Shown one piece after another: positions 1-50,460 of a DNA stretch of 64,000 nucleotides (its first letter is position 1; every line of letters begins with the position of its first letter). Both the position numbers and the translations under genes were made by a program. A model generated the notes under the pieces. The model was not told where the DNA came from. It saw only the letters and a program-made list of their open reading frames with translations, and did not search any database. Source of the stretch: an uncultured Bordetella sp. (GTDB lineage: Bacteria > Pseudomonadota > Gammaproteobacteria > Burkholderiales > SG8-41); assembly GCA_964486865.1 (NCBI GenBank), contig CAZAOZ010000012.1:1870-65869 (forward strand), in the 5' to 3' direction.

Positions 1-852
1 AAGACACGCTTCAACCGCGGCTACCAGCACTGGCAAATATTCCGGACGCCCTCCAGCCATCGCCAGCGCAATCGCACAGGTCTCGACGGTGGTAATGCCG
101 CCGCGCGGCGGAAACTTGCCCAGCACCTGCGTGCGCGGAAAAGCCGCGCCGCGCAATATCCAGTCCACGCGCTCGCGTGTTGCCGGCCATATCGGCAGAC
201 CGTCGCCCCACAGATTGGTGATCAGCAGGTTGTTGGCTTTCTGCAGTGCGTCTTCGTACGTTTTGCCTTCGACGCTGAGCATCGGCAGTTCGCCATTGGA
301 TGATGGCGTGAAGCCGGACTGCCATTTCATCAATCCGTTGTAAAACTCCCTCTTGCGCGCAGTGATGGTCGACAGGTCGCTGCCCGGCAGGAACATGTCG
401 ATGGGGAACGTCACCATCGCGGCGTCCGGTGCCAGACCGAGACCCGACACGGCGTTTTTCATGACGCCGACGAAATCCGTCCGCGTCAGCGTGACGGTGG
501 GAATGCCCATTGTTTCGATCCTCGCGACTGCACGGCCGCAAGCGGTGGCGCAGGACCCTCAGGCCGCGTTGCCGACGATGACGGCGTCCACCCCGCTCTG
601 TTTGACGAGCTTTGCCGTCTCCTCGGTGGGAATCAGCGCGTTGCCTTGCGGATAGGCGTCGATCGGCAGCAGTTCCGCCGTCGGATAATCCGCCTTCAGC
701 AGATCGCGCAGCAGCGGCAGCATGCGAAACGCCTGCCACTGCTCGTTGCTGACAAAGCCGATACGCTTGCCGGCCAGCGTATCGATGCGTGGCGCGAATG
801 ATTGCGTAACTTCCAGCGCACCGGATGGATCGTGGAATTCAATTCTGGTCAT
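1..852 (-). CDS. UGSC-motif (GrdB-like) candidate selenoprotein fused to a homolog of the 347-aa UGSC-partner protein. In-frame TGA (Sec) at 559-561. The 3' end runs off the window.
   Basis: The minus-strand frame is open from ATG 852-850 (AGGAGGG RBS about 8 nt upstream) to the window edge if TGA 561-559 is read through. The translation ...DAVIVGNAA-U-GSCATACGRAVARIETMGIPTVTLTRTDF... aligns on both sides of the TGA with the protein at 18708-19232. Later residues (NLWGDGLPIWPATRERV...TTVETCAIALAMAGGRPEYLPVLVAAVEA) align with the N-terminus of 19253-20296. The ORF track shows only the part upstream of the TGA (559..960). Confidence 0.7.
528..553 (-). other. Candidate SECIS-like hairpin downstream of TGA 559-561
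   Basis: Minus-strand sequence CTGCGC-CA-CCG-CTTG-CGG-CC-GTGCAG gives a 6-bp lower stem (one G-U), a 2x2 internal loop, a 3-bp upper stem and a CUUG loop. The loop begins 16 nt after the UGA. Folded by eye only. Confidence 0.4.
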
Positions 853-14255: not shown

Positions 14256-15695
14256 TTACAGCCCCGCCTGCGTGATGAACTTCGAGATCAAATAGGGTTC
14301 GATGGCCTCGCTGCCGCCCTCGGAGCCGTAGCCGGAATCCTTCACCCCGCCGAACGGCACCTCGGGTAACGCAAAGCCCAGGTGATTGATGGTCATCATG
14401 CCGGTCTCGACCTGCGCCGCGATCGCGTTCGCGGTTTTCGCGGACTTCGTCCACGCGTAGGCGGCGAGTCCGTACGGCAGGCGGTTGGCCTCGGTCACCG
14501 CATCGTCGAATGTCCTGAACGGATTGATGATCGCCAGCGGACCGAAAGGCTCGGTGTTCATCGCCATCGCGCTGGTCGCCAGTTCGGTAATCACCGTCGG
14601 CTCGAAAAAATTGCCCTTCTCGCCGATCGGGTAGCCGCCGGTCTGCACCTTGCCGCCGTGTTTTTTTGCATCCTCGACGTTCGCCACCATCGCGCTCTGC
14701 CGGCGCGGATTGGCCAGCGTCGCCATCTTGGTATCCTTGTCGAAACCGTCACCGACCTTGATCGCCTTCGCACCTTCGGTGAACTTCTCGACGAACTGCT
14801 TGTAGATCCCCTCCTGCACCAGGAACCGCGTCGGCGACACGCACACCTGGCCGGCGTTGCGGTACTTCATGAAGGTCATGGTCTTCGCCGCGAGCTCGAC
14901 GTCGGCATCATCAAAAATGATCACCGGCGCGTGGCCGCCCAGTTCCATGGTCGCACGCTTCATGTACTGGCCGGCCATCGCCGCCAGTTGCTTGCCCACC
15001 GGCGTGGAGCCGGTGAAGGTGATCTTGCGGATCACCGGATGCGGAATCAGGTAACTTGAAATCTCCGCCGGGCTGCCATACACCAGGTTGATGACGCCGG
15101 CCGGCACGCCGGCGTCAGCAAATGCGCGCACCAGCTCCGCCGGTGAGGCCGGGGTTTCTTCCGGCGCCTTGATGATGATCGAACAGCCGGTGGACAGCGC
15201 CGCCGACAGCTTGCGCACCGCCTGGTTGATCGGGAAATTCCACGGCGTAAAGGCCGCGACCGGGCCGACCGGCTCCTTCACCACCAGTTGATAAATGCCC
15301 TCGGCGCGCGCCGGAATCACGCGACCATAGGCGCGGCGGCCTTCCTCGGCGAACCAGTCGATCAGGTCGGCGCCGGCCAGCGCCTCGAGTTTGGCTTCGC
15401 CGACGGGCTTGCCCTGCTCGAAGGTCATGTAAGTCGCGATGGTATCGGCGCGCTCGCGGACCAGATCCGCGGCCTTGCGCATGATCTTGCTGCGCTCGTA
15501 GGCCGACACCTTGCGCCATACCCTGAAGCCGGCTTCCGCAGCCTCAAGCGCACGATCGAGGTCGGCTTTTTCGGCGTAAGCGACCGTGCCGATCTGCTGG
15601 TGATTGGCGGGATTGACGACCGGCAGCGTGCGGCCGGCGGTAGCGGGGCACCACTGGCCGTTGATGTAGAGCAGCGTGTTGGGATACGTGGACAT
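14256..15695 (-). CDS. NAD(P)-dependent aldehyde dehydrogenase (succinate-semialdehyde dehydrogenase-like)
   Basis: YINGQWCPA...VVNPA..., [22 protein letters not shown], catalytic-Cys region [14 protein letters not shown], and EPFGPL. Start at MSTYPN (15695). Confidence 0.9.
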
Positions 15696-15785
15696 GGCGG
15701 TGCACCTTATGCGAGGAGTAACGGAAAGGCCGAAGGATAAACGACTTTGGCGCGGGCCGGGCACAGAACCGGGTCGCGGCGGGAC

Positions 15786-16532
15786 TTACGACTGAATCTT
15801 CCTGAAGTATGCCTTGTTGGCGATCTCGACCACGCTCATGCCGGCGGCGACGTCGCGGTTGCGCTCCTCCTCGCCTGCCGACAGCGCCTGCGCGCGCGCC
15901 AGCACCTCATGAATGCGTGCCCGCGGGATGAAGCACACGCCGTTGTCGTCGGCCACCACCAGGTCGCCGGCATTGACCGGCACGCTGCAGATCTGCACCG
16001 GGCCGTTGATTGCGACGGTCTCGACGCGCCACTTGCCGGTGATCAGGCTCACGCCGCGCGCCCAGATCGGATAGCCGATACCGCGCGCGGTGGCGATGTC
16101 GCGCGTCGCGCCATCGACGATCGCCCCCGCTTCGCCCTGGCGCTTGCCCACGTTCGCCGAATTGCCGCCCAGGCTGGAGATGCCCGCCACGCCTTCGATC
16201 ACCAGCACATCGCCAAGTCGGGCGAGATTGTGTGCCTCGATGTCGGCCTGCTTCGACTGGCGCGCCATCGCGCCCAGCGTCGGTGGTACCGACTGCATGA
16301 TGTTGCGCACCGTCATCACCGGGCCGACCATGCGCGCGCCGGGCAGCATCGGCCGCAGCGTCGCCGCCGGAATCGCGCCGTGGATACCCAGTTCGTCCAT
16401 CGCATCGGATACCGTGCCGGCGAGGTCGGTCAGCGCCAGAAAAGCATCAATGACGTCCTGACCGGGACGCGGAATGTCGCGCATCACGATGCGCGCGGGA
16501 TCAATCTTGCCGGTGAGTTTAGGTTCGGCCAT
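15786..16532 (-). CDS. RraA family protein (4-hydroxy-4-methyl-2-oxoglutarate aldolase/oxaloacetate decarboxylase-like)
   Basis: GDVLVIEGVAGISSLGGNSANVGKRQGEAGAIVDGATRDIATARGIGYPIWARG...VNAGDLVVADDNGVCFIP is typical of the RraA/HMG aldolase fold. ATG 16532 with an AAGGAA RBS, 13 nt after the upstream Bug stop. Confidence 0.85.
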   Translation of the reverse strand: MAEPKLTGKIDPARIVMRDIPRPGQDVIDAFLALTDLAGTVSDAMDELGIHGAIPAATLRPMLPGARMVGPVMTVRNIMQSVPPTLGAMARQSKQADIEAHNLARLGDVLVIEGVAGISSLGGNSANVGKRQGEAGAIVDGATRDIATARGIGYPIWARGVSLITGKWRVETVAINGPVQICSVPVNAGDLVVADDNGVCFIPRARIHEVLARAQALSAGEEERNRDVAAGMSVVEIANKAYFRKIQS

Positions 16533-16545
16533 GACAAAAGTTCCT

Positions 16546-17511
16546 TTACTCGGCCTTGGCGCCGGACGCCTTGACGACCTTGGCCCATTTCTGGATTTCG
16601 TCGCGAACGATACGGCCGAACTCATCCGCAGTGGTCGGCATGACGTCCGCCCCCAGCCCCGCCAGCCGCTTGTTGACTTCGGGCATCCTGAGTACCGCGA
16701 CGATGTCGGCATTCAGCCGCGAAATGACTGCGGCAGGCGTGCGCGCCGGCGCGAAGAATCCGTACCAGGAAGTTACGTCGTAGCCGGGCACCCCGGACTC
16801 GGCGACCGTCGGCAAGTCGGAAAGATGCACGGAACGCTTCAAACCGGTCTGCGCGATGGCCCGCAAACGGCCCGCCTGCACCATCGGCAAGGCCGGCGGC
16901 AGCCCCAAAGAAGCCAACTCGATATGCCCCGCCATCACATCAGTCACCACGGGACCGGCGCCCTTGTAGGGCACGTGCACAATCCTGAGATTATTGCTGA
17001 CGTTGAGCAGCTCGATCGCCAGATGATTCGGCGATCCGGTATTTGCGCCGAAATTGAGCTTCCCGGGCCTGGCCTTGGCCAGGGAGATCAGGTCCCTCAT
17101 CGATTTCACCGGCAGCGACGGATGAACCACGATGACGCTGGGCGCCGTGATGCCCTGCGTGATCGCGACGAGATCCCTTGCCATGTCGTACTGCAGATTC
17201 TTGTACAAGCTCATGCCGATGGCCTGCGGTATGCCCGCCGACAGCAGCGTGTATCCATCAGCCGGCGACTTGGCGACGAACTCCGAGCCGATATGGCCGC
17301 CCCCGCCGGTGCGGTTTTCGACCAGCACGGGTTTGCCCAGCCTGCCTGCCAGATCGTTGCTGACCATGCGCGCAAGGATGTCGGCGGTGCCGCCGGTCGC
17401 CAGCGGCACGACGATTTTCACGGGGCGGTTCGGATAATCCTGCGCCACGGCGCATGTGGCGCCGGCCATTCCCAACGCAGCCACGACGACTGCCGTCCAT
17501 TGCTTGACCAT
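16546..17511 (-). CDS. Bug/TctC family substrate-binding protein
   Basis: DYPNRPVKIVVPLATGGTADILARMVSNDL...VENRTGGGG...DGYTLL. ATG 17511 is preceded by GGAGAA; the tracked start is at 17529. Confidence 0.85.
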   Translation of the reverse strand: MVKQWTAVVVAALGMAGATCAVAQDYPNRPVKIVVPLATGGTADILARMVSNDLAGRLGKPVLVENRTGGGGHIGSEFVAKSPADGYTLLSAGIPQAIGMSLYKNLQYDMARDLVAITQGITAPSVIVVHPSLPVKSMRDLISLAKARPGKLNFGANTGSPNHLAIELLNVSNNLRIVHVPYKGAGPVVTDVMAGHIELASLGLPPALPMVQAGRLRAIAQTGLKRSVHLSDLPTVAESGVPGYDVTSWYGFFAPARTPAAVISRLNADIVAVLRMPEVNKRLAGLGADVMPTTADEFGRIVRDEIQKWAKVVKASGAKAE

Positions 17512-17559
17512 GTTCTTCTCCGGAATCATCAGGTTTGAGGTGACAAGGTTGCGACCGAA

Positions 17560-18471
17560 TCAGAAATCGTAGAGCCGTCGGGGATTGTCCGCGAGGATAT
17601 TCTTCTGGACCGTCGCATCCTCGGTCCACAGTGACAGGATATCCAGCAAATCGCCGTCATTCGGCATCACGAAATTCGCCGGCATGTGGCCGGGCACTGC
17701 GGGATGCGGCCAGTCGCTGCCCCACACCAGTCGGTCGGGTGCTGCGGCGATCAGCGCTTGCGCAAACGGCGTCACGTCGGCATAGGGATAAGGCAGTTCC
17801 GACAACCGGTACGGCGCCGACAGCTTGGCCCAGAATTTACCTTCCCGCATCAACGCGAGCAGCGCCTGGAAGCCGGGATTGTCCACGCCGGCGGCCGCCG
17901 GCACATGACCCATGTGGTCGAACACCACATCCACCGGCAGCTTGCGCAAACGCGGCGCGATCCCGTCGAGATTGCGCGCATCGGCATGCAGCTGCACATG
18001 CCACTTGAGCCCGGCGATGCGCGCGGCAATGGCTTCGAGGTCGTCGAGCATCAATCCGCTTTTTGCGAACAGGTTCACGCGCACGCCGCGGAAGCCCGCC
18101 TTGTGCAGGCGCTCCAGTTCCTTTTCCGGCACGTCGGTGGGCACCACCGCCACGCCGCGCCATGCGCCTTTCATTTCGTTCAACGTGTCGAGCTGGCGTT
18201 CGTTGTCCATGCCATACACGCTGGGCGTTACCAGCACGGCGCGTTCGATGCCCAGCAGCGCCAGCAGCGCGCGATACTGCGCCAGCGTCACGTCCGGCGG
18301 CGTAAACAGGCGCTTGGGCGAAAAAGGATATTTGTCCACCGGGCCGAAGATGTGCGCGTGGCAATCGATGGACCCGGGCGGCGCCTTCAGCCTGGGCTTG
18401 CGCGGCGACAGGTCGGGGCCGTCGCAGACCGGGATGCCGTCGCTGTCGCACTTTTGTGAACCACCGCTCAT
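17560..18471 (-). CDS. Amidohydrolase-2 family hydrolase (2-pyrone-4,6-dicarboxylate lactonase LigI-like)
   Basis: IDCHAHIFGP..., ...VTPSVYGMDN..., ...GVRVNL..., ...WHVQLH..., ...VVFDHMGH..., ...LVWGSDWPHP matches the metal-independent LigI-type amidohydrolase pattern. ATG 18471 has a GGAGGAAG RBS. Confidence 0.85.
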   Translation of the reverse strand: MSGGSQKCDSDGIPVCDGPDLSPRKPRLKAPPGSIDCHAHIFGPVDKYPFSPKRLFTPPDVTLAQYRALLALLGIERAVLVTPSVYGMDNERQLDTLNEMKGAWRGVAVVPTDVPEKELERLHKAGFRGVRVNLFAKSGLMLDDLEAIAARIAGLKWHVQLHADARNLDGIAPRLRKLPVDVVFDHMGHVPAAAGVDNPGFQALLALMREGKFWAKLSAPYRLSELPYPYADVTPFAQALIAAAPDRLVWGSDWPHPAVPGHMPANFVMPNDGDLLDILSLWTEDATVQKNILADNPRRLYDF

Positions 18472-18653
18472 TTCTTCTTCCTCCGGTTGCGTTTGCATGC
18501 TGAACGCTGGATTGTAAAGAAAAGCGCGGCCCCTCCCTGTCCAAAGTCCACAAAATGCGCGACGCCAGACTGACGGGGCACACCGAAACCCCCGGCCCGA
18601 TCGCACGGCCACCGGGACCACAACAGCGGTCGGGCGCACGTTCCTGTTCTAGC

Positions 18654-18706
18654 GCCTGTTAACAGTCATTTCGTGAGATGAAGTAATTGTTTAATTGTTA
18701 ACAGGC
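18654..18706. promoter_or_regulatory. Pair of (C/T)TGTTAACAG palindromes flanking an AT-rich spacer; candidate operator or structure
   Basis: GCCTGTTAACA (18654-18664) and TGTTAACAGGC (18696-18706) are exact reverse complements, and each contains the self-complementary TGTTAACA. They lie between the UGSC gene stop and the start of the amidohydrolase operon. Confidence 0.35.
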
Positions 18707-18707
18707 C

Positions 18708-19232
18708 CTAGCGCCGGGTCAGCAGCGGCACGATCGCATCGACGGCGATACGCGCCTTCTGCCGCAGCACAGCGTCGTCATTGTTGGCGACCGGATGCGC
18801 GATCACCGCGAAGGGATAATCCTTCAGGCCGTTGACGCCGGCCACCGCTCTTGCGGTGGCGACGAAGCGGTCGGTCATGATCGCGACCGCCGGGATGCCG
18901 AGCCGTTCGGCTTCGATGGCGTCGTGCAAACTGCACGACGAGCAACTGCCTCAGTCGCCGGTGGCGGCGAGGATGGCGTCCGCGCCGCGCATCTCCATCA
19001 GCATCGGCGGCGGCACCGGCCGCGAGGCGTCGGGCTTGCGCCGGCGAATGCACTCGCGCACGCGGTATTCCTTCTTCAGGATTTCCTCGATGAAGTCGAA
19101 CAGCCGTTCGGTGCCGATCTTGGCGTTGTCGATCATGCCGACCACCGCGCCGTCGAACGAGACGAGCGGCGGCGCCATGCGCAGCGCCTCGCCCTGCGCG
19201 GACTGTGTGGGATCAAGGACTCTGAGCATCAT
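18708..19232 (-). CDS. UGSC-motif (GrdB-like) candidate selenoprotein, 174 aa, Sec encoded by TGA 18951-18953
   Basis: ORFs 18951..19439 and 18708..18929 are in the same frame, separated only by a TGA. The joined translation reads ...GADAILAATGD-U-GSCSSCSLHDAIEAERLGIPAVAIMTDRF... and aligns with the paralog at 1-852 on both sides of the TGA. ATG 19232 has a GGGAGG RBS. A perfect hairpin follows the TGA. Confidence 0.8.
18920..18940 (-). other. Candidate SECIS hairpin for TGA 18951-18953
   Basis: Minus-strand CGTCGTGCA-GTT-TGCACGACG is a perfect 9-bp stem (or 8 bp with an AGUUU loop). The stem starts 10 nt after the UGA and the loop 19 nt after it. The loop contains G-U. Confidence 0.6.
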
Positions 19233-19252
19233 GGTTGCCTCCCTGTGTGAAG

Positions 19253-20296
19253 TCACGCGCCGACGGGTATCGTGACCGCCAGCGATTTCTTGCCGTACCA
19301 CGGCGGCAGTATCGCGCCGAAGCCGCCCGCGGGTCCGCCGGCGGCGATGACCAGCAGGTCGTCGGGCGAACGCAGCGCGCAGTACACCTTGTCCTCGTCC
19401 TTGCGCCCCGCGACTGCCGCCTTGCCGACGCCGCGCCATTCGCCGCGCTTCACCCGCGCCTTCTCGAACACGTAGTCGCGGATGTCCTGCTTGCTCCAGC
19501 CGGCAGCGGCAAAAATCTCGCGGTGCTGCTTCGGGATGACGACCGCGTAATTGCCCTCCCAGATCGAGTACAGCAGCATGTTGCTGCGCATCGCCGCGGC
19601 GTAGGTATCGAGGATTTCCTTCGGGTCATGCGTCCATTCGTTCATGATCTGCGTCGGCGACTCCACCTGCAGCGCAGTCACCGCCGACACGCCGGCGGGC
19701 ACGCCGCGCTCGACCGACAGCGGCAGCCACGGCGAATCCTCCTCGTCTTCCGCCACGCAGAAGGTGAACTTGCCCGGATGCCCCAATGTCGAGCGGTCGA
19801 GCTGACCCGGAATGCCGCCCAGCACGTTGAGCAGGATCAGGCGGATGCTGCGGCCGATGGTGGCATTGGCACGGCAGGCGTTGGCGAGCACGTTGTGCGT
19901 CGCGTTCATGCCGATCGCGAGCCGGATGGGTCCGTTGACGACAATGAAAGGCGCGCTGCCGCCGGTACTCGCCGTACTCCCGTGCAGTGCGTACTCGGGC
20001 TGGCACATGGCCCTGACGATGGCAACGACGACCGGCAGGCATTCCGGCAGGCAACCGGCCATCACGGCAGCGATCGCGATTTTTTCAGCGGTAATGCTGC
20101 GGCGGCGCACCGGCTCGACACCGACGACGTCGGCGGCATCAAGCTCCGCTGCGGCCAGGAATTCCGCAACCGCATCCTCGGTCGGCGCAACGATGGGCAG
20201 GCCATCGGTCCAACCGTTGCGCTGGAACAGCTCGTTGGCTTCCGCCGCGTCGGCGACTTCGTGAATGGCACTCGAAAATTTCGGTACGGCGCTCAT
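19253..20296 (-). CDS. Conserved hypothetical protein (347 aa), UGSC-partner family
   Basis: No named family recognised. The N-terminal region (NGWTDGLPIVAPTEDAV...ITAEKIAIAAVMAGCLPECLPVVVAIVRA) is homologous to the C-terminal extension of the fused gene at 1-852. It ends 20 nt upstream of the UGSC gene. Confidence 0.75.
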   Translation of the reverse strand: MSAVPKFSSAIHEVADAAEANELFQRNGWTDGLPIVAPTEDAVAEFLAAAELDAADVVGVEPVRRRSITAEKIAIAAVMAGCLPECLPVVVAIVRAMCQPEYALHGSTASTGGSAPFIVVNGPIRLAIGMNATHNVLANACRANATIGRSIRLILLNVLGGIPGQLDRSTLGHPGKFTFCVAEDEEDSPWLPLSVERGVPAGVSAVTALQVESPTQIMNEWTHDPKEILDTYAAAMRSNMLLYSIWEGNYAVVIPKQHREIFAAAGWSKQDIRDYVFEKARVKRGEWRGVGKAAVAGRKDEDKVYCALRSPDDLLVIAAGGPAGGFGAILPPWYGKKSLAVTIPVGA

Positions 20297-20329
20297 CGAT
20301 GGATCAGCCCGGTGACGACCTGTCGCAGA

Positions 20330-20833
20330 TTAGCCCCGAATCGGCGCCGCCGCCACCGTCTCCGCCAGGAAATCCAGCGCCGCCGCGGTGAACGCGTGCA
20401 TGTTGGCCACGCGATCGCTGCTGCCGGTTTCCAGCGTGCGCGTGCGTTCGACGGTGCCCGCCACCGCAAAACACGCGTGCCCCGGCGGATAGCCGTAGCG
20501 GCTGCCGGTCGGCCCCGCCGCGCCGGTCTCGGTAAGCGCCCAGTCAGTCGCCACCCGCTCGCGGGTGCGGCGCGCCTTGAGCAGCGCATAGGTTTCGGTG
20601 GACGGCGTGATGCCACGCATCTCGTCGTCACTGATGCCCAGCATCGCGCGGCGCATTTCATAGGTGTAAACGACGATGCCGCCGCGCACGCACGCCGAAG
20701 CGCCGGGCACCGCGAGCAGCGCCGCCGTGATCAGCCCGCCCGCCGACGATTCGGCCACCGCGATGGTCTGCTTGCGCGCGATCAGCAGCGCCACGGCGCG
20801 CTCGGCGTGGGGCAGCAATTCATTCATGGCCAT
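20330..20833 (-). CDS. CinA-family C-terminal domain protein (PncC-like nicotinamide-nucleotide amidohydrolase fold)
   Basis: TIAVAESSAGGLITAALLAVPGASACVRGGIVVYTYEMRRAMLGI...WALTETGAAGP matches the CinA_C pattern (AESCTGG-like). Confidence 0.85.
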   Translation of the reverse strand: MAMNELLPHAERAVALLIARKQTIAVAESSAGGLITAALLAVPGASACVRGGIVVYTYEMRRAMLGISDDEMRGITPSTETYALLKARRTRERVATDWALTETGAAGPTGSRYGYPPGHACFAVAGTVERTRTLETGSSDRVANMHAFTAAALDFLAETVAAAPIRG

Positions 20834-20852
20834 CTCCGGTATCGATGTGCGC

Positions 20853-21407
20853 CTAACGCGCGGCGAGAAACGCTTCGAACTCGCCCTGCCGCGTGGACAG
20901 GGTTTTCAGCCAGCGCTGTCCGCCGAACGTGAAGCCGATCCAGTAGCCGAGCTCCACGATTTCCGGCTCAGTGAATTCGCCCTTCAATTCGCCCCAGAGC
21001 TGGTCGCCCGCCTGCGTCGGGTCGTACATGATCGCGTCAGCGTAACGCAGCGCGATCTTCTCGCGGGTCGTGAATTTTGCGGATTTCTCGTAGTTCATGA
21101 GTTCCGCCATCTTGCCGCCGGCATCCTGCGCAGACCGCGCAGTTCCCTGATTGCTTCAGTAGCCGCATTCGATGGTGAACGCGACATAGGCGCGCGTGAG
21201 TTCCTTCAGATCGTGCTCGAGCACCCCGGCGTTGTTGTCGAAAAGCATTTTCCGGGTCAGCGTGAATGACCGCATCACGCCAGGCTGGTGCGCGCGTATC
21301 GCCTGGTTTTCGGGGCCGGGGCGGCCGTCGCGGCGTGCCTCCTCCAGCCACTGGCGCACCTCGGGGTCGCGGATCGTGTCGGGGTCAACGTAACTGAGCC
21401 GGGCCAT
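20853..21407 (-). CDS. Carboxymuconolactone decarboxylase/AhpD-like candidate selenoprotein (CxxU), Sec encoded by TGA 21156-21158
   Basis: ORFs 21156..21428 and 20853..21110 share a frame across one TGA. The joined translation reads ...RAYVAFTIE-C-GY-U-SNQGTARSAQDAGGKMAELMNYEKSAKFTTREKIALRYADAIMYDP..., which places the TGA where CMD/AhpD-like proteins carry the second Cys of CxxC. ATG 21407 has a GAAGGAG RBS. Confidence 0.8.
21126..21142 (-). other. Candidate SECIS hairpin for TGA 21156-21158
   Basis: Minus-strand CTGCGC-GGTCT-GCGCAG is a perfect 6-bp stem with a GGUCU apical loop starting 19 nt after the UGA. As I recall it, the apical part of the E. coli fdhF SECIS (GCAGGUCUGC) has the same GGUCU and a similar distance. 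Confidence 0.6.
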
Positions 21408-21519
21408 GCAGCGGACTCCTTCTGGCAATCATGAAATAATTGATGCTACCCTGAACGCAGCCGGCATCGCTGTCAACCCATCCATTGCCCGGCACCTGTC
21501 AGACATGAGGAAACCCGCC

Positions 21520-22491
21520 ATGAATATCCGAATGCTCGCAGCCCTCGCGGCCGCGGCGCCCCTGATGCTTGCCGCCGCACACGCGGCCGATACCGCGCAG
21601 TACCCCACAAAACCCATACGCCTGATCGTGCCGCAGCAGGCCGGCAGTTCCAACGATACGCTGAGCCGGGTGGTGACCAATTTGCTCGGCGAGGCGCTGG
21701 GGCAGCAAATGGTCGTGGACAACCGCGCCGGCGTGGGCGGAATCATCGGCATGGAAATCGGCGCCGCGGCGGTGCCCGACGGTTACACGCTGGTGTCCAT
21801 GGCGACCGCGCAGGTCATCTCGCCATACCTGCAGAAAAAACTCGCTTACGACACGCTCAGGGATTTCGCGCCGATCTCGCTGTACGGCATCACCTACAAC
21901 GTGTTCATTGCGCACCCGTCGCTGCCGGCAGCGAACGTGAAGGATTTTGTGGCGCTCGCCAAAGCGAAGCCGGGCACGATCAACATGGCATCGGCGGGCC
22001 CGGGCTCGCAAAGCCATCTCGCCGGCGTGATGTTCTCGCTGGCCACCGGCATCAACGTGCTGCATGTCCCGTACAAGGGCGCCGGCGCGTCGGTCGGCGC
22101 GGTATTCGCCAACGAGTCGCAGTTCGCCGTGACGCCGCTCCCGTCCACCGTCGGGCACATCAGGTCCGGACGCCTGAAGGCGCTCGCCCTGAGCTCGAAG
22201 AAGCGTTCACCGTCCGCATCCGACATCCCGACGTTCATCGAGCAGGGATTCAATTTCGAGTCGAGCGGCTGGAACGGCCTCATCGCGCCCAAAAACACGC
22301 CCAAACCCGTCATCGACAAGCTCCTGGCGACGCTGCACAAGGTTGCCGCAACGCCCGCGTTCAAGGAACAGATCGCGCGGCAGGGCGCAGAAGTGATCGT
22401 CAATACGCCGCAGGAGTTTGCGCAGTTCATCCGCGCGGAATTCGACAAGTTCGGGCCGGTGGTGAAAGCCGCGAACCTCCAGGCCTACTGA
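21520..22491 (+). CDS. Bug/TctC family substrate-binding protein
   Basis: MNIRMLAALAAAAPLMLAAAHAADTAQYPTKPIRLIVPQQAGSSNDTLSR...VDNRAGVGG...DGYTLV. GAGGAAA RBS before ATG 21520. Confidence 0.85.
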   Translation: MNIRMLAALAAAAPLMLAAAHAADTAQYPTKPIRLIVPQQAGSSNDTLSRVVTNLLGEALGQQMVVDNRAGVGGIIGMEIGAAAVPDGYTLVSMATAQVISPYLQKKLAYDTLRDFAPISLYGITYNVFIAHPSLPAANVKDFVALAKAKPGTINMASAGPGSQSHLAGVMFSLATGINVLHVPYKGAGASVGAVFANESQFAVTPLPSTVGHIRSGRLKALALSSKKRSPSASDIPTFIEQGFNFESSGWNGLIAPKNTPKPVIDKLLATLHKVAATPAFKEQIARQGAEVIVNTPQEFAQFIRAEFDKFGPVVKAANLQAY

Positions 22492-22553
22492 CCTGCGCCG
22501 GGCGCGGCGCAACAAATGCACAAGCGCCGAAGGTTTATCCGGATTGCCAAATA

Positions 22554-23048
22554 TTATTTGGCGGGAACGGCAGCCACAACATCAATTTCGATCAAAAACT
22601 CCGGTTCGGCCAGCCGGCTGATGATCAGCAGAGTATTGGCAGGCGGGGCTTTCAGGTGCCTGTAGCGGGCCAGCCGCACATCGCGCAGTTCCTTGATATT
22701 GGCCGCATCCGTCAGATAGGTGGTCGTCTTGACGATGTTTTGCAAGTCCGCACCTACTGCTTTGAGTGCCGTCTCGATGTTGTCATAAACCGCATGCGCC
22801 TGGTCCTGGAAATTGTTGCTGTTGACCTTGTAATTTGCATCCGCGGGGGCCTGCCCCGAAAGATAGATCATGCGCGCGCCCTGAACCTCGACCACCTGAG
22901 TCAGCCTCGGCGAGGTCCACAGTCCGGGCGGATTGTGGTGACGCATGACAAAAGCGGGAGACCCGGGGGTCGTGTGAGCGGCATTCAGCATCGTCCAGCG
23001 ACGCAGCAACGGGGTCAGAAAAGCAGGCAGCCTTGATGTTGCAAACAT
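22554..23048 (-). CDS. RidA/YjgF/L-PSP family protein
   Basis: MIYLSGQAPAD...QDQAHAVYDNIETALKAVGADLQNIVKTTTYLTD...PANTLLIISRLAEPEFLIEIDVVA. ATG 23048 has a GGAGA RBS. Confidence 0.8.
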   Translation of the reverse strand: MFATSRLPAFLTPLLRRWTMLNAAHTTPGSPAFVMRHHNPPGLWTSPRLTQVVEVQGARMIYLSGQAPADANYKVNSNNFQDQAHAVYDNIETALKAVGADLQNIVKTTTYLTDAANIKELRDVRLARYRHLKAPPANTLLIISRLAEPEFLIEIDVVAAVPAK

Positions 23049-23247
23049 GAGGGTCTCCGATGGCTTCAAAAATGAACGGCGATAGCTGATAAATAGTATC
23101 AGCTTTTGTTTTCATTCCTCCCGCGCACGATGAATGGCAAGGAATTGCCCCTGAGGAATTAGGGAATGATAAAGCTTGATGCGAAGGCCCGAATTAGGCA
23201 TATTCGTTCCGTCTGAATCGGTTCCGCGCGACAGCCCAGGAGGCCTC

Positions 23248-31048: not shown

Positions 31049-33721
31049 CTACGGCCGGCGCACGCGCACCGCCGCGATGATTTTTGCCAGCCGCGCGCGC
31101 GAAGTCTCGTCCGGCCGCGCATGGGCCGCGGCGTCGAGCAGCCAGCGCTCGATGTCCGCAGCGCTGGTTGCGGCATTGTGCCGGCCTTCCATGGCGTCTT
31201 TCAGTGCGCGCAATTTCAGGTGTTGCCGGGCGGCGTGAAATTCCGCGGGGCTTTCCAGTCCGCACGCGATCTCCAGATTCAGCAGGATGTCGGGCAAACC
31301 CTCGCCGGCATTTTTACCCGCCCTGGCGGCAGGCGCTGCGGCTGACGGGCCCACGCCCGCGAAACGCGCATTCAGTTTGCTGTTCCAGGCATCGGGAAAA
31401 TGCGCAACGGCGTTCCACCGCGCTTCCAGGCTGACCGCCACGTCCTCGGACAGCGTGCCATTGGCATCCTCGGCATCCAGCAGTTTTTCGCGCTCTTCGC
31501 ACAGCGCCATTTTCGTGATGAGTGCATCGTAGCGGGCTTGCGATGCGGCCACGGCCAGTTCGCCGAGCCGCCGCGTCACGGCATCGCGCGCGGTGCGATA
31601 ACGCGCGTCGATTTTTGCGGCGACTTCCCTGGGCGCTGCCGGGCTGGTACGCCAGGCAGTTTCAGCCTCAGCCATGGCGCGTTTGATGTCCGCGGCGATG
31701 GTGCCCTGCGTCAGCGCATTGAGCCGACTGATGATGTCTTCGCGCGCTTGCTGCGCGGCCGTGGATACGGCTTCCGTAGCGGCACGGGCAGCATCACGTG
31801 CCTTGAAAATGGAATCCGTAGCGGTCTTGAACGCACCCCATAGTGCGTTCTCGTCGCGTCGCGGCAGCGGCAGGGCTTTGGCCACCGCCTGCCACTCGGT
31901 TTGCAGCTTGCGCACTTTGCTCACGATGTCGCGCGCGGCCGCATCCGGGGCCGCCAGTGTTTTCGCTTCCGCCACCAGGGCCTCGCGCTGGCGGCGCGCT
32001 TCGGCATAGACATTCTGCAGCGGCCCCTCCAGCGCTTGTAGCGCTGCCGCGTAACGTAGGGGAAGCGCGTTGTCGCCTTTGAGCGCCTTGCGCGGCACCG
32101 TGTGCTCGATCGGCCCCAGCTTGCGCCACGCGCGTTGCGCGTCCTCCAGCGCATGCGCCACGGCGCGCCAGTCGGGTGCGGCGGCGGTCGTGGCCGGTGT
32201 TGCGGGCGCGGCAGGATCCGTGGGCGTGCCGTCCGGTACGGCAGGGAAAAATTTTGCCGCCGCCTCACCCAGAGCAGCGATGATGGCGACACGCGCCGCC
32301 AGATTCTCCGCGCGGGCCGACTTGAGTTTGTCCAGGTGCGCCGCCACCGGCACGTAGGCCGCCTTCAACGCCCCGTCAAAGGCCAGCCATACGGTTTGAC
32401 TGGATGCACCGCCGAGCTTGTCCAGTTCTTTCCAGCGCTCGCGCAATTTTTCGATGGCTTCGGCATGCGCCTTGATGCTGATTTTGCCGGCAGCCTGTTC
32501 AGCGAGCGCCTGCGCCTCGGCCGCAAGCCGTTCGCGGCTTTGTCCGCCGCTCCAGCGTTGCCACTCGTGCAGGCGCTGCTGCTCGCGGCGCAGGGCATCG
32601 ATGCGCAACGTGAATGCGGCGTTCGCTTGACCGCGCTTCAACGCCTGGTCGATCGCGCCCAGCAGACGCGTCAGGTCGGCCACATGCCCCGCTGCCTGTG
32701 CGGCTTCCGCCGCTTCGATATCGCGCTGCAGGGTATCCGCGTGTCGCTTGTTTTTTTGTGCCCGCTGCGCGCGCTCTTTGACGTTCAGCGCATCGTCTGC
32801 GCGTTGCCGCTCGTCATTGCTTGAATTTCGCCAGTCCGCAAAGCGGTGGGCCAGCACGGTGTGCAATTCACCGTCCGTGATCTCCGGAAACGCGCGCCAC
32901 TGCTCAATGCGCGCTTTCTCATCGGCCGCGTCGGCAGCCTGCGGCGGTAACGATTGCAAAAATCCGGCACGCTCCACCACACTGGACGCCAGCGCCAGCA
33001 ACCGACTGCCGGCATCGGCTTTCTCGATACATCGCGCATCGCCGGCATCCGGCGGATGCTGCACGAGATCCAACAGACTCACCGCCGGGGTTTCCGTATC
33101 GGCGGGCGCAAGTTCGGCCCGCGCCACGCCCGGCAGAATGGCTTGCAATGCAGCCATGCCCGCATCCACGGCGTCCAGCCATCGCGTGAGCGTTTGAGAG
33201 CGCTCGCCCTGCGCGCGCACGCGCACCCCGAGCTGCCCGCTCAACGCGGCAAATTCGCCCGGCAGGGCCGGATCGATCAGCTCAGTATGCAAGGCGCTCC
33301 ATGCGCGATCCAATTCCACCACATGATTGATGGGCACGACCTCCTGCCCGAGCAACGCGCGCGCGCCGGCGATCAAGGCCCGGGCTTCGGCATCGGCAAG
33401 GCGTGTCGCGTTGGCGGCGTCGTGGCGAGATTTCGCGGCGCGATACAGGCGCTTGTCCTGATCGCGAAAGTCGTGCATGGCCTGCTTGAACGATTGCTCC
33501 TGCGTTAACGCCGCGATCGCGGCGAGTTTCAACGGCAAGCTGGGCGCCTGCTGCGCCAATTGCAGCAGCATGGCGTCGTCCGTTGCAGCGTCCCGGATGC
33601 GCTCCTGCCACGCCAGGTTCTCCTCGGCGGCGACACCCGCCGCTGCAGCATCGTCCGCGGCAGTGCTGGCGGGGGAAGCAGATTGCAAGTTGTTGTTTTT
33701 ATTAAAAATTTTGTTAAGCAT
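31049..33721 (-). CDS. DUF349 repeat-containing protein (890 aa)
   Basis: Repeated helical units with the W(R/Q/K)xLGP...(LW/VW)xxF motif: AWRKLGPIEHTVPRKAL, EWQAVAKALPLPRRDENALWGAFKTATDSIF, RWKELDKLGGASSQTVWLAFDGAL. Highly Ala/Arg/Glu-rich. Confidence 0.8.
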   Translation of the reverse strand: MLNKIFNKNNNLQSASPASTAADDAAAAGVAAEENLAWQERIRDAATDDAMLLQLAQQAPSLPLKLAAIAALTQEQSFKQAMHDFRDQDKRLYRAAKSRHDAANATRLADAEARALIAGARALLGQEVVPINHVVELDRAWSALHTELIDPALPGEFAALSGQLGVRVRAQGERSQTLTRWLDAVDAGMAALQAILPGVARAELAPADTETPAVSLLDLVQHPPDAGDARCIEKADAGSRLLALASSVVERAGFLQSLPPQAADAADEKARIEQWRAFPEITDGELHTVLAHRFADWRNSSNDERQRADDALNVKERAQRAQKNKRHADTLQRDIEAAEAAQAAGHVADLTRLLGAIDQALKRGQANAAFTLRIDALRREQQRLHEWQRWSGGQSRERLAAEAQALAEQAAGKISIKAHAEAIEKLRERWKELDKLGGASSQTVWLAFDGALKAAYVPVAAHLDKLKSARAENLAARVAIIAALGEAAAKFFPAVPDGTPTDPAAPATPATTAAAPDWRAVAHALEDAQRAWRKLGPIEHTVPRKALKGDNALPLRYAAALQALEGPLQNVYAEARRQREALVAEAKTLAAPDAAARDIVSKVRKLQTEWQAVAKALPLPRRDENALWGAFKTATDSIFKARDAARAATEAVSTAAQQAREDIISRLNALTQGTIAADIKRAMAEAETAWRTSPAAPREVAAKIDARYRTARDAVTRRLGELAVAASQARYDALITKMALCEEREKLLDAEDANGTLSEDVAVSLEARWNAVAHFPDAWNSKLNARFAGVGPSAAAPAARAGKNAGEGLPDILLNLEIACGLESPAEFHAARQHLKLRALKDAMEGRHNAATSAADIERWLLDAAAHARPDETSRARLAKIIAAVRVRRP

Positions 33722-43917: not shown

Positions 43918-45459
43918 ATGAGCATGAAGCGCCCCAATATCATCCTGATCACTTCCGACCAGCAGCGCGCAGACTGCAACGGCTTCGAAAACCCGAACAT
44001 CAAGACGCCGCACATCGACTCCCTGGCGCGCGACGGCACGCGTTTCTCTGCCTGCATGACGCCCAACCTCGTCTGCCAGCCGTCGCGCGCCTCGATTCTC
44101 ACCGGGTTGTTGCCGCTGACGCACGGCGTGTGGGACAACGGCGTCGATCTGGATCCGCGCGTGGGCGAGCAGGGCTTTGCCGGCACGCTGAGCCGCGCCG
44201 GCTATCGCAGCGCATTCATCGGCAAGGCGCATTTCGCCACCAAGTCGACGTTTGCCCCGACCGGCACGCCGGAGTGCAACAAAAGCCAGGCGAAATATGG
44301 TCCCGACTGGCTGGGCCCCTACATGGGCTTTGAGCATGTGGAGCTCACCGTACTCGGCCATACGCACCGCACACGCCCGCTGGACCGTCCGCCGATGGGC
44401 CATTACGAACGCTGGTTCATCTCGCGCGGCAAGAACGAAGAAGCCTATCAACTGTGGGCCACCTCAACGAAACCCGAGACCGGCGCCGCACAGACCTGGA
44501 GTTCGGCATTGCCGGTGGCCTGGCACAGCAGTACCTGGACGGCCGACCGCACCATCGATCTGCTGACGCGCCACGACAGGCAAAAACCGCTGGCGATGTG
44601 GGTGTCGTTCCCCGATCCGCACCATCCGTTCGACTGCCCGGAGCCGTGGAGCCAGATGTACGATCCGAAAAGCCTCACGCTGCCCAGGCACCGCACAATG
44701 GACCTCGAGCGCAGGCCGTGGTGGCACAAAGCCTCGCTCGAAGGCGTGCCGCAACTGGCCGATCCGGCCATGCGCAAATTCCGCGCCGAAGGTTCGCGCG
44801 TGCCGGTGCAAACCGACGCCCAGCTCGCGGAGATGACCGCGAATTACTACGGCATGATTTCGCTGATCGACCACAACGTCGGCCGCATACTCAATGCGCT
44901 CGATGACCTGGGTTATGCCGAGGACACGCTGATCGTTTACAGCACCGACCACGGCGAGATGCTGGGCAACCACGGGCTGTACCTGAAGGGACCGACACCC
45001 TACGAAGACCTGATGCGTGTCACCATGGTGGCACGGGGCCCTGGCGTGGCGGCGAACCGGGTGGTGACCGAACCGGTCTCCACGCTCGACCTGGCGGCAA
45101 CCTTCTACGACAGCGCCGGCGTTGCGGCGCCGCATGCGCTGCAGGGCCGCAGCCTGAAGGATCTGCTGGCAGGCAAATCAGCACCGCGCGACGCCGCCTG
45201 GAGTGAATGGCATGTGCATCCGTCGCGCTGCGGCGTGGGACTGCAGCTGCGCACGGTGCGCACCAAAACCCACAAATGCACCTTCGAACTGGGCTCGGGC
45301 GCCGGAGAACTGTACGACCTGAAAAATGATCCGGGTGAAATGGACAACCTGTTCGACGATCCGGGCCGCGCCAAGGTCAGGAAAGAACTGGAAGAACTGA
45401 TGCGTGCGCGACCGGGCAAAATACTGGACAAGCTGGCGGAACCCATCGGCATGGCATGA
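43918..45459 (+). CDS. Cys-type sulfatase (aryl/choline-sulfatase-like)
   Basis: PNIILITSDQQRAD... and the formylglycine signature VCQPSRASILTG (C-x-P-x-R). Confidence 0.9.
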   Translation: MSMKRPNIILITSDQQRADCNGFENPNIKTPHIDSLARDGTRFSACMTPNLVCQPSRASILTGLLPLTHGVWDNGVDLDPRVGEQGFAGTLSRAGYRSAFIGKAHFATKSTFAPTGTPECNKSQAKYGPDWLGPYMGFEHVELTVLGHTHRTRPLDRPPMGHYERWFISRGKNEEAYQLWATSTKPETGAAQTWSSALPVAWHSSTWTADRTIDLLTRHDRQKPLAMWVSFPDPHHPFDCPEPWSQMYDPKSLTLPRHRTMDLERRPWWHKASLEGVPQLADPAMRKFRAEGSRVPVQTDAQLAEMTANYYGMISLIDHNVGRILNALDDLGYAEDTLIVYSTDHGEMLGNHGLYLKGPTPYEDLMRVTMVARGPGVAANRVVTEPVSTLDLAATFYDSAGVAAPHALQGRSLKDLLAGKSAPRDAAWSEWHVHPSRCGVGLQLRTVRTKTHKCTFELGSGAGELYDLKNDPGEMDNLFDDPGRAKVRKELEELMRARPGKILDKLAEPIGMA

Positions 45460-45530
45460 GCTTGCCCGGATGAATTCACCGGAAGTCGTGGTCTGAGACG
45501 GTTATTATCGAGAACTGCATAAATAATGAC

Positions 45531-45566
45531 AAAAACATGCCTCTGACGAGGCTGTCATGTTTTTGG
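45531..45566 (+). terminator. Intrinsic terminator after the first sulfatase
   Basis: AAAAACATGCCTC-TGAC-GAGG(CTGT)CATGTTTTT followed by TGG. The outer stem is 9 bp and the inner stem 4 bp, with a T5 tail. Confidence 0.6.
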
Positions 45567-45594
45567 AAATGCTCAATAGGGGGAGAAAATACAA

Positions 45595-46551
45595 ATGAAA
45601 AAAATCATGCTCGGCATTTTGTTACTCGGCTTTTGCTCCGCGGCCTTTGCGCAAAACTGGCCCAACCGGGCGATCCGGGTGCTGGTGGGGTTTGCGCCCG
45701 GAGGCACTACCGATGTGTCGGCGCGCGTGACCAGCGAGATCGTGTCCCGCGAACTGGGACAGACCGTCATCGTCGAAAACCGGCCCGGCGGCTCGGGCAG
45801 CATCGCGATCGAGGCCCTGCTGCGCGGCGCGGCAGACGGTTACACGATACTGATCGGATCGGATTCTTCGTTTTATCAGCCCGTGGTGGCGCCATCGTTG
45901 TCTTATCGGACCGAAAGGGATCTGCGGCCGATCGCGATACTCGTCAGCCAGCCGATCGTTATCGCGGTCCATCCGGCGCCCGGATGGAAAACCGTCCCCG
46001 ATCTCATCAAGGCCGCCAAGGCACGGCCCGGCGAAATTGCCTATGCCCTCTCGTCGCCCACGGGTACGCAGGCGCTCGCGGGCCTGGTCTTTTTCCAGAT
46101 GGCGAAGGTGAAGCTGACGGCCATCCCTTACAAGGGCGGCGGGCAGGCCGTGGTGGATCTGATCAGCGGGCAGGTTCCGGTCGCCGTACTCGGCACCGCA
46201 CCGCTGGTGCCGCAAGCCAAGTCGGGGCGGATCAGGATACTCGCAGTCACCTCGAAAGCGCGCGCCAAATCCTTGCCTGATGTGCCGACGCTGGCTGAAG
46301 CGGGCTATCCGGACATGGATATCTCGCAGTGGTTTGGCGCAATGGCGCCGGCAGCCGTGCCTGCCGACATCGCCAGCCGCTTTGCAGCGGCATATAACAA
46401 GGCGTTGTCTGATCCCAAGGTCGTCGAGCGGCTGTTCAATGCCGGCCTCGATGCGGTGGGCGGCTCTCCGGAAGAGATGGCGCGGCGCATGAAAATCGAG
46501 ACCGCGATCTGGGCCAAGGCAGCAAAGGAAGCCGGGTTGGGGAAAAACTGA
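45595..46551 (+). CDS. Bug/TctC family substrate-binding protein
   Basis: NWPNRAIRVLVGFAPGGTTDVSARVTSEIV...VENRPGGSG...DGYTIL. Confidence 0.9.
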   Translation: MKKIMLGILLLGFCSAAFAQNWPNRAIRVLVGFAPGGTTDVSARVTSEIVSRELGQTVIVENRPGGSGSIAIEALLRGAADGYTILIGSDSSFYQPVVAPSLSYRTERDLRPIAILVSQPIVIAVHPAPGWKTVPDLIKAAKARPGEIAYALSSPTGTQALAGLVFFQMAKVKLTAIPYKGGGQAVVDLISGQVPVAVLGTAPLVPQAKSGRIRILAVTSKARAKSLPDVPTLAEAGYPDMDISQWFGAMAPAAVPADIASRFAAAYNKALSDPKVVERLFNAGLDAVGGSPEEMARRMKIETAIWAKAAKEAGLGKN

Positions 46552-46554
46552 ATC

Positions 46555-47910: not shown

Positions 47911-48006
47911 ACCGACTGGTTACAAAAATTTCAATGCGATCGAACATGATCGCCTTGCATTCCGGCCCGCACTCCGCCTCGCAGGAGTCAGTAAAATCAG
48001 CAGCGC

Positions 48007-49422: not shown

Positions 49423-49471
49423 TGTATGACCTGTTGTTTTAATTTATTTTTTATGAGGCGTCGGAAGACGC

Positions 49472-50431: not shown

Positions 50432-50460
50432 GGGCAAACCTTTTTTCGTGGACGCAGGGT

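Follow-up and report, generated by a model that had tools for sequence, protein, structure and literature searches.

Two selenoprotein families, UGSC and AhpD-like, have been known since 2005-2008 (PMC2398784, PMC1976440), and curated models exist for both. Here we describe a locus encoding one member of each, found on the minus strand at positions 18708 to 21407 of a 64,000-nt stretch of DNA from an uncultured Bordetella sp. (contig CAZAOZ010000012.1; the whole stretch is called the window). Its four genes, P1 to P4, encode an AhpD-like selenoprotein, a protein consisting solely of a CinA C-terminal domain, a 347-aa protein from a large family without curated model (P3), and a UGSC protein. 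Both selenoprotein genes appear to be real, and their core, P3 with UGSC, is on balance most likely a two-subunit reductase that depends on a selenol. As selenoprotein genes, P1 and P4 are new members of already known families.

Like the previously described UGSC family (NF041046, PF24696; Zhang and Gladyshev surveys), P4 has the U-G-S-C motif, a selenocysteine (Sec) insertion sequence (SECIS) hairpin and cysteine (Cys) orthologues; the pairing with P3, the link to a thioredoxin reductase-like (TrxR-like) flavoprotein and the link to selC, selA and selB were, however, not found described in that literature. P1 resembles AhpD-like selenoproteins ('AhpD-like 1/2' in the Global Ocean Sampling (GOS) data, TIGR01926, NF053654) in its CxxU site, conserved SECIS element and many Sec orthologues, but scores below the cutoffs of all curated AhpD-like families, and its usual neighbourhoods are unrelated to P3 and UGSC. 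Selenoprotein B (GrdB, GrdF, GrdH and PrdB; TIGR01917, TIGR01918, TIGR04483) resembles UGSC in weak local sequence matches, in the U-x-x-C start of the motif and in the retention of Sec, and in both cases the selenoprotein appears to work with a separate, larger subunit. In contrast to Selenoprotein B, UGSC has 174 rather than about 430 aa and scores far under the family cutoffs, P3 is without similarity to GrdE/PrdA, no GrdA, GrdC or GrdD genes were seen nearby, and UGSC occurs in aerobic heterotrophs instead of Stickland fermenters. A further likeness is to the Msr-Trx, Prx-AhpF and ArsC-Trx systems, since P3 likewise has thiol or selenol modules that can replace one another, as partners or as fused domains, and some genomes encode a putative NAD(P)H-dependent flavoprotein disulfide reductase beside it; however, P3 is unrelated to the Msr, Prx or ArsC catalytic domains and UGSC is neither a thioredoxin nor a glutaredoxin.

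Locus organization and selenocysteine decoding

The four genes are separated by intergenic gaps of 19, 33 and 20 nt and occur in the same order on public contigs carrying an identical P3. The features of the locus, together with a second UGSC copy at the start of the window, are as follows.

20853 to 21407, minus strand: P1, AhpD-like (CMD-superfamily) selenoprotein, 184 codons, motif C-G-Y-U
21156 to 21158, minus strand: predicted Sec codon (TGA) of P1, context ...FTIE-C-G-Y-U-SNQG
21126 to 21142, minus strand: SECIS-like hairpin of P1, CUGCGC-GGUCU-GCGCAG, starting 16 nt past the U of UGA
20330 to 20833, minus strand: P2, protein consisting solely of a CinA C-terminal (PncC-like) domain, 167 aa, PF02464
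19253 to 20296, minus strand: P3, partner of UGSC, family without curated model, 347 aa
18708 to 19232, minus strand: P4, UGSC-family selenoprotein, 174 codons, motif GD-U-G-S-C-S-S-C
18951 to 18953, minus strand: predicted Sec codon (TGA) of P4, context ...AATGD-U-G-S-C-SSC-SLHD
18920 to 18940, minus strand: SECIS hairpin of P4, CGUCGUGCA-GUU-UGCACGACG, starting 13 nt past the U of UGA; G-U of the loop conserved
1 to 852, minus strand: second UGSC copy, fused to a P3-like domain, TGA at 559-561, cut by the window start

P1 and P4 each contain exactly one in-frame TGA, located at the redox motifs C-G-Y-U and D-U-G-S-C, respectively. For scoring with profile hidden Markov models (HMMs), P4 was joined across this codon with U replaced by C; the joined protein passes both the 'UGSC family (seleno)protein' model NF041046 (126.9 bits against a cutoff of 125) and PF24696 (164.4 bits against 25), and only the joined form reaches the NF041046 cutoff. 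Eighty species-representative loci were fetched by way of the P3 family and translated with TGA read through. All 85 UGSC copies (78 loci) have one TGA each, which never falls outside the D/A-U-G-[SAG]-C column and is flanked on both sides by conserved protein sequence, and Cys-type orthologues sharing 52-59% identity (P0392-P0395 and P0397) read C-G-S-C at the same place. This family favours Sec over Cys by a wide margin: Sec is present in 85 of 85 copies here and in 255 UGSC sequences against 21 with Cys in the GOS data (PMC2398784). Two database entries (P0391 and P0396) read 'GDWGSC', where the tryptophan presumably stands for the Sec TGA, read with a different genetic code, which would make these entries mis-translated selenoproteins.

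A phmmer comparison of P1 with PDB sequences returned AhpD-like structures (2gmy, 2ijc, 7xw1 and 2o4d; E 0.004-0.01) in which 'GCAFC' or 'GCAYC' aligns with 'ECGYC' of P1, placing Sec at the second Cys of the AhpD-like CxxC. The C-x-Y-U motif is kept in all 80 metagenomic P1 orthologues (72-87% identity), which can be aligned through residue 184.

The hairpins that follow the two TGAs are conserved. In P4, the 9-bp stem is paired in 88% of cells over 40 sequences from many phyla, compared with 13-50% when the partner columns are slid as a control; five of the nine pairs change on both sides, and none of 500 shuffles reaches the observed covariation score. Several of these compensatory changes also alter the encoded residues (C/G/S/W and H/L/Y), which argues that the RNA structure constrains the coding sequence. 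The hairpin of P1, a 6-bp stem with a GGUCN loop, pairs in every cell of 15 orthologues, with one pair changing from C-G to U-A (the version in the window) or A-U, and folding of the 38-nt stretch gives this hairpin as its minimum-free-energy structure; the set of orthologues was picked by hand in a way that favours variant sequences and is counted as supporting evidence only. Folded as single sequences, the two hairpins are unremarkable (z = -2.0 and -1.1).

Conservation past the TGA and hairpins with compensatory changes in both genes, with Cys orthologues and curated family models for UGSC, indicate that both TGAs are selenocysteine codons. Here the first-pass annotation was largely right: it had read four minus-strand genes 19-33 nt apart, the first AhpD-like with a CxxU motif and the last of UGSC type, each broken by a single TGA at its redox motif and followed by a SECIS-like stem-loop, had foreseen that ORF (open reading frame) callers would split them, and had looked to a Cys or Sec column in homologues and to sequence continuing past the TGA in orthologues, both of which were found. 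On the public contigs with identical P3, P1 indeed appears as products of 83 and 85 aa and P4 as products of 93 and 73 aa. These split calls, the ordinary single-sequence folding energies and the absence of Sec machinery from the window are what one would expect if the TGAs were plain stops and the genes were pseudogenes or pairs of separate small genes. That explanation is effectively refuted by protein conserved past the TGA in 85 of 85 UGSC and 80 of 80 P1 orthologues, across phyla, by the Cys orthologues, by a curated '(seleno)protein' model that only the joined protein passes and by the covariation of the hairpins, and we give it next to no weight. ARAGORN found no tRNA in the window, an Rfam scan of it returned nothing at gathering thresholds, and tblastn with the SelA, SelB and TrxR-like proteins of relatives gave no match.

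In relatives of this locus, the machinery lies beside the module, a further point against plain stops. A Castellaniella metagenome-assembled genome (L010; 7998-14050) has the order P3, UGSC, TrxR-like gene, tRNA-Sec, selA and selB; in a SAR116 locus (L034; 1932-8649) selA, tRNA-Sec and selB adjoin P3-UGSC; and in the cultured Sheuella amnicola NBD-18 (L009; 8001-13697) a TrxR-like gene and selB are near P3-UGSC. The TrxR-like flavoprotein, with a C-A-D-C motif, is encoded downstream of UGSC in four loci (L008, L009, L010 and L061). In some genomes, the Sec-insertion machinery is thus physically attached to the P3-UGSC module.

P3 and UGSC are the conserved core

A UGSC gene is present in 71 of the 80 P3 loci, as a rule 10-150 nt downstream of P3, in some loci upstream of it and in a few at a distance of 1-2.6 kb, and five of the nine loci without one are cut by contig ends. 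P3-UGSC loci come from Proteobacteria, Actinobacteria, Chloroflexota, Methylomirabilota, Acidobacteriota, Binatia and Myxococcota, with Sheuella amnicola NBD-18 and Hyphomonas neptunium among the cultured carriers. Clustering of the neighbours around P3-UGSC gave no conserved third gene, the commonest family occurring in at most nine loci, and the contexts are varied catabolic islands with genes for TctC, CoA-transferase, LLM, MmgE/PrpD, aldehyde dehydrogenase, amidohydrolase-2, RraA-like and TauD proteins. Going by these neighbours, organic acids, amino-acid derivatives and sulfonates are candidate substrates.

The other two genes of the locus do not follow this pair. None of the 80 other P1 loci has P3, UGSC or CinA beside P1, none of the 80 P3 loci outside this species has P1 nearby, and a P2-type CinA gene adjoins P3 in 7 of 87 loci, each of which comes from this species or from the closely related L001/L002. 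The four genes, which the first-pass annotation had read as one operon, are not one conserved functional unit, because P1 is never linked to the others elsewhere and CinA is linked in close relatives only; of the co-occurrence it had proposed to test among the four families, the part that stands is P3 with UGSC. Comparative evidence thus identifies P3 and UGSC as the conserved core of the locus, with P2 as an accessory gene of close Burkholderiales relatives and P1 as an independent, widespread selenoprotein that is a lineage-specific neighbour here. P1 and P2 are probably co-transcribed with P3-UGSC in this organism, given that all four genes lie on one strand with short gaps and a single intergenic region upstream, and AhpD-type CxxC proteins are disulfide relays, which makes a local redox link plausible. 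A dedicated pathway of which the AhpD-like and CinA proteins are full members would explain this arrangement, however it is quite unlikely in view of the locus counts above and of L001, where a CinA-P3-UGSC set occurs without P1.

The association also takes the form of gene fusion. At the start of the window (1 to 852), a UGSC domain (VIVGNAA-U-GSC-ATAC) runs in frame into a P3-like domain; full-length relatives of this copy are represented by fragments of about 445-465 aa that follow the TGA, and by a Cys form (P0121-P0123), and they end in C-A-A-D-E-C, and the post-TGA hairpin differs from the stand-alone UGSC type. L001 has the same UGSC-P3 fusion upstream of its CinA-P3-UGSC set, and full UGSC-P3 fusions of Cys type exist, P0320 among them. 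A 'UGSC/Unknown_1' fusion mentioned in the 2008 GOS paper (PMC2398784) is probably this UGSC-P3 fusion.

The P3 family

A scan of 64 diverse P3 members gave no Pfam or NCBIfam family, and the P3 profile found no relative among PDB sequences, in agreement with the first-pass annotation, which had placed the protein in no known family. The family is nonetheless large, with 4905 clusters at 50% identity (E <= 1e-3). An AlphaFold2 model of P3 made with a 64-sequence alignment has a predicted local distance difference test (pLDDT) score of 94.8 and a predicted template modelling (pTM) score of 0.93. A Foldseek search of the PDB with it gave nothing beyond marginal matches to Toblerone-fold cyclic amide hydrolases, class I fumarate hydratase and chorismatase, at template modelling (TM) scores of about 0.2-0.3, and no fold was assigned from these matches.

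Residues D31 (in G-W-T-D-G-L-P), T69, E71, G81, N121-G122-P123, G148-R149, E183, E185 and W190 are invariant in P3 across all architectures. Two cysteines, C82 and C180, are present in 90% or more of the P3 proteins that stand alone, and likewise in fusions with thioredoxin-fold, ferredoxin-thioredoxin reductase (FTR) and Cys-type UGSC domains. The P3 domain occurs alone, as tandem doubles, and joined to Cys-type UGSC, to AhpC/TSA or Redoxin domains, or to an FTR β domain. Tandem doubles are found in one protein of about 710 aa, and one short contig has three consecutive P3 genes (L053, 5-2150; P0243, P0248, P0252 and P0255); these arrangements hint that P3 may work as a dimer or pseudodimer. 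In the thioredoxin-fold-P3 fusions (P0293, P0300, P0328, P0378 and P0290), a conserved linker motif P-G-C-G-S-[KR] echoes the U-G-S of UGSC, suggesting that it may be a [U/C]-G-S element that reaches into the site of P3.

The stop codon of P3 is itself a TGA (19253-19255), in a column where alpha- and gammaproteobacterial orthologues go on into a tail of C-x-D-C type (IGA-C-VDC-EP). A genuine stop is more probable here than a third Sec codon, because the close Burkholderiales relatives L009 and L010 end there without a tail.

Predicted UGSC fold and possible relation to Selenoprotein B

UGSC was modelled by means of a 59%-identical Cys-type orthologue. The model (pLDDT 91) is a βαβαβαβα flavodoxin-like sandwich in which the Sec/Cys position is at the N-terminus of the helix that follows the third strand. 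Its neighbours in the PDB are the GH3 C-terminal domain, RpiB, lumazine synthase and FMN reductases, at TM scores of 0.4-0.5, and no thioredoxin is among the 50 best fold matches; a sequence search of the PDB with UGSC gave no meaningful match. The likely Trx-like fold proposed in the 2008 GOS paper (PMC2398784) is unsupported by this model, because the neighbours are flavodoxin- or Rossmann-like.

Weak but recurrent HMM matches link UGSC with Selenoprotein B. The GrdB model TIGR01917 matches 20 of 38 UGSC sequences (best E 1.3e-5), the PrdB model matches nine, and the GrdF, GrdH, PrdB and general selenoprotein-B models match 7-12 each. In P4, the sole member with coordinates available, the matched part of the profile is positions 336-398 of 431, which we take to be the Sec-holding region, and the whole protein scores 18.1 bits against a cutoff of 602. 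The proteobacterial UGSC motif U-x-x-C-x-x-C presumably also matches that of GrdB, while its third Cys is absent outside Proteobacteria. No P3 member of the 64 matches PF09338 (GrdE/PrdA) or any Grd/Prd NCBIfam model at E <= 1. The first-pass annotation had pointed to a likeness to GrdB/PrdB; the likeness itself is recovered in these weak, recurrent matches, but the quoted context, VIVGNAA-U-GSC, belongs to the gene at 1 to 852 (TGA 561-559) and not to P4. These comparisons point to a likeness of UGSC to GrdB/PrdB that is probably real, if remote.

A proposed selenol-dependent reductase and its alternatives

We propose that P3 is the substrate-binding catalytic subunit of a reductase and UGSC its small, flavodoxin-like redox subunit, the complex, its electron path and the role of P3 as reductase all being inferred. 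Sec94, at the helix N-terminus, and Cys97 of the U-x-x-C motif would deliver two electrons and cycle through a selenylsulfide, which would be re-reduced with NAD(P)H by the TrxR-like flavoprotein or by the general thioredoxin system. Electrons would accordingly pass from NAD(P)H over the TrxR-like protein or thioredoxin system to the U94/C97 selenylsulfide, then to the P3 active site and the substrate, with the AhpD-like (C-x-x-U) and CinA-domain proteins as lineage-specific additions. P3 is cast as the effector that consumes reducing equivalents because three structurally unrelated disulfide-exchange modules are fused to it, and the path from NAD(P)H to the TrxR-like protein is the simplest because that flavoprotein adjoins the pair in four loci. 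Since Sec is almost never replaced by Cys and a fused subfamily lacks the P3 cysteines, the selenol may take part in the chemistry at the P3 site and not merely pass on electrons from afar.

Several observations count against this proposal. P3 is without recognisable catalytic relatives, and the best Foldseek matches, Toblerone-fold cyclic amide hydrolases, have an E-value of about 7e-4 and a TM score of about 0.2. The UGSC-fused subfamily, to which the copy at the window start belongs, has Gly and Val/Phe at the positions of C82 and C180, so that P3 alone is no thiol-based reductase in every lineage. Four loci with room beside P3 (L024, L032, L039 and L083) have no detected UGSC, in agreement with the ORF listings of L039 and L083, neither selA, selB, tRNA-Sec nor a TrxR-like gene lies within the window, and the literature calls UGSC a protein 'of unknown function' (PMC1976440, PMC13188914).

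The main alternatives differ in what the selenol does. A chemistry of the Grd/Prd type would have P3 cleave itself, for example between G81 and C82, to form a pyruvoyl group that makes a Schiff base with an amine; the Sec of UGSC would then attack the α-carbon, as in GrdB/PrdB, and cleave the C-N bond reductively, making the pair a split amino-acid or amine reductase of the aerobic world. The recurrence of GrdB, GrdF, GrdH and PrdB models among UGSC matches, with GrdB in 20 of 38, fits this idea, as do the agreement of U-x-x-C-x-x-C with what we take to be the GrdB motif and the nearly invariant Gly-Cys dipeptide of stand-alone P3. The subfamily without P3 cysteines, where Sec would have to act directly, and the rarity of Cys in place of Sec, more in keeping with a catalytic nucleophile than with a relay (PMC2398784), also speak for it. 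We nevertheless regard it as unlikely: the GrdE/PrdA and other Grd/Prd models match none of the 64 P3 members, the P3 model puts G81-C82 at a helix-helix junction and not in a β-turn, and C82 is Gly in the fused subfamily, hence no universal pyruvoyl precursor. In addition, the thioredoxin-fold and FTR-type modules that replace UGSC fit electron delivery better, GrdA-, GrdC- and GrdD-like genes were not seen nearby, and the third motif Cys is confined to Proteobacteria. A broader version, in which the pair is a split enzyme related to GrdB/PrdB and widespread in aerobic heterotrophs, is a tentative possibility that deserves some weight; P3, of a new fold, would bind or activate a small organic substrate, the Sec of UGSC would attack this substrate directly and cleave a C-X bond reductively, and the dedicated TrxR-like flavoprotein would recycle the selenylsulfide.

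It is improbable that the pair serves, like peroxiredoxins or Msr, in general antioxidant defence or protein repair as opposed to small-molecule metabolism. Fusions of P3 with AhpC/TSA-type domains, the adjoining AhpD-like selenoprotein and the abundance of the UGSC family in oxic aquatic samples (PMC2398784) are consistent with such a role. However, the 347-aa P3 is enzyme-like, with invariant Asp, Arg, Asn and Glu and no peroxidase-like motif, and none of the 64 members, that of the window included, matches Prx or Msr models in Pfam or NCBIfam at E <= 1. The genes lie in catabolic islands (TctC, CoA-transferase, LLM, MmgE/PrpD, aldehyde dehydrogenase), and the Toblerone-fold hydrolases that top the P3 fold search are another kind of enzyme. 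The two-subunit, selenol-dependent reductase remains the reading we prefer.

Accessory genes and surroundings of the locus

P1 scores 54.7 bits against a cutoff of 310 with NF053654 (YciW-related selenoprotein) and 34.1 bits against 81.8 with TIGR01926 (peroxidase-related enzyme), and no Pfam match was found at E <= 0.01, PF02627 (CMD) included. Because it falls below every curated cutoff and lacks a Pfam CMD match at this threshold, P1 is placed with the AhpD-like/CMD proteins at superfamily level only and appears to be a distinct subfamily; speculatively, it may serve as an extra local redox relay. The CinA domain of P2, as first annotated, is confirmed by PF02464 (132 bits), with TIGR00199 at 63.1 bits against a cutoff of 68.9 and the equivalog models far below cutoff.

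A 16-nt inverted repeat (18649-18664 and 18696-18711; 94% complementary, with a 31-nt AT-rich spacer in surroundings that are otherwise about 65% GC) straddles the P4 stop. It may act as a terminator-like hairpin that lacks a U tract, or as an operator of the amidohydrolase gene that lies downstream. A promoter and terminator scan gave nothing exceeding chance, and base composition is unremarkable. The surroundings form a Burkholderiales catabolic island at 14256-23069 and 43918-51214 of the window, with many genes for TctC (Bug) solute-binding proteins and genes for amidohydrolase-2, aldehyde dehydrogenase, RidA-like proteins, two sulfatases and MmgE/PrpD. An 890-aa DUF349 protein is encoded at 31049-33721.

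Significance for the UGSC and P3 families

To the earlier descriptions of UGSC, this analysis adds a near-obligate partner, P3, from a family of about 4,900 clusters that needs a curated model, and the interchange of redox modules on P3, where thioredoxin-fold or FTR-type domains take the place of UGSC. It further adds the attachment of a TrxR-like gene and of selC, selA and selB to P3-UGSC in some genomes, and a predicted flavodoxin-like fold for UGSC in place of the assumed thioredoxin fold. For genome annotation, the P1 and P4 genes are examples that ordinary callers split. Should GrdB-like direct catalysis prove true, the interest of the pair would be high, and if P3-UGSC is a split GrdB/PrdB relative, this enzyme would be the main reason that some cells keep the whole Sec-insertion machinery. 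The pairing with P3 is a first lead to the function of UGSC, a common environmental selenoprotein, some 20 years after its discovery, and these leads make that function testable in a cultured carrier, Sheuella amnicola NBD-18.

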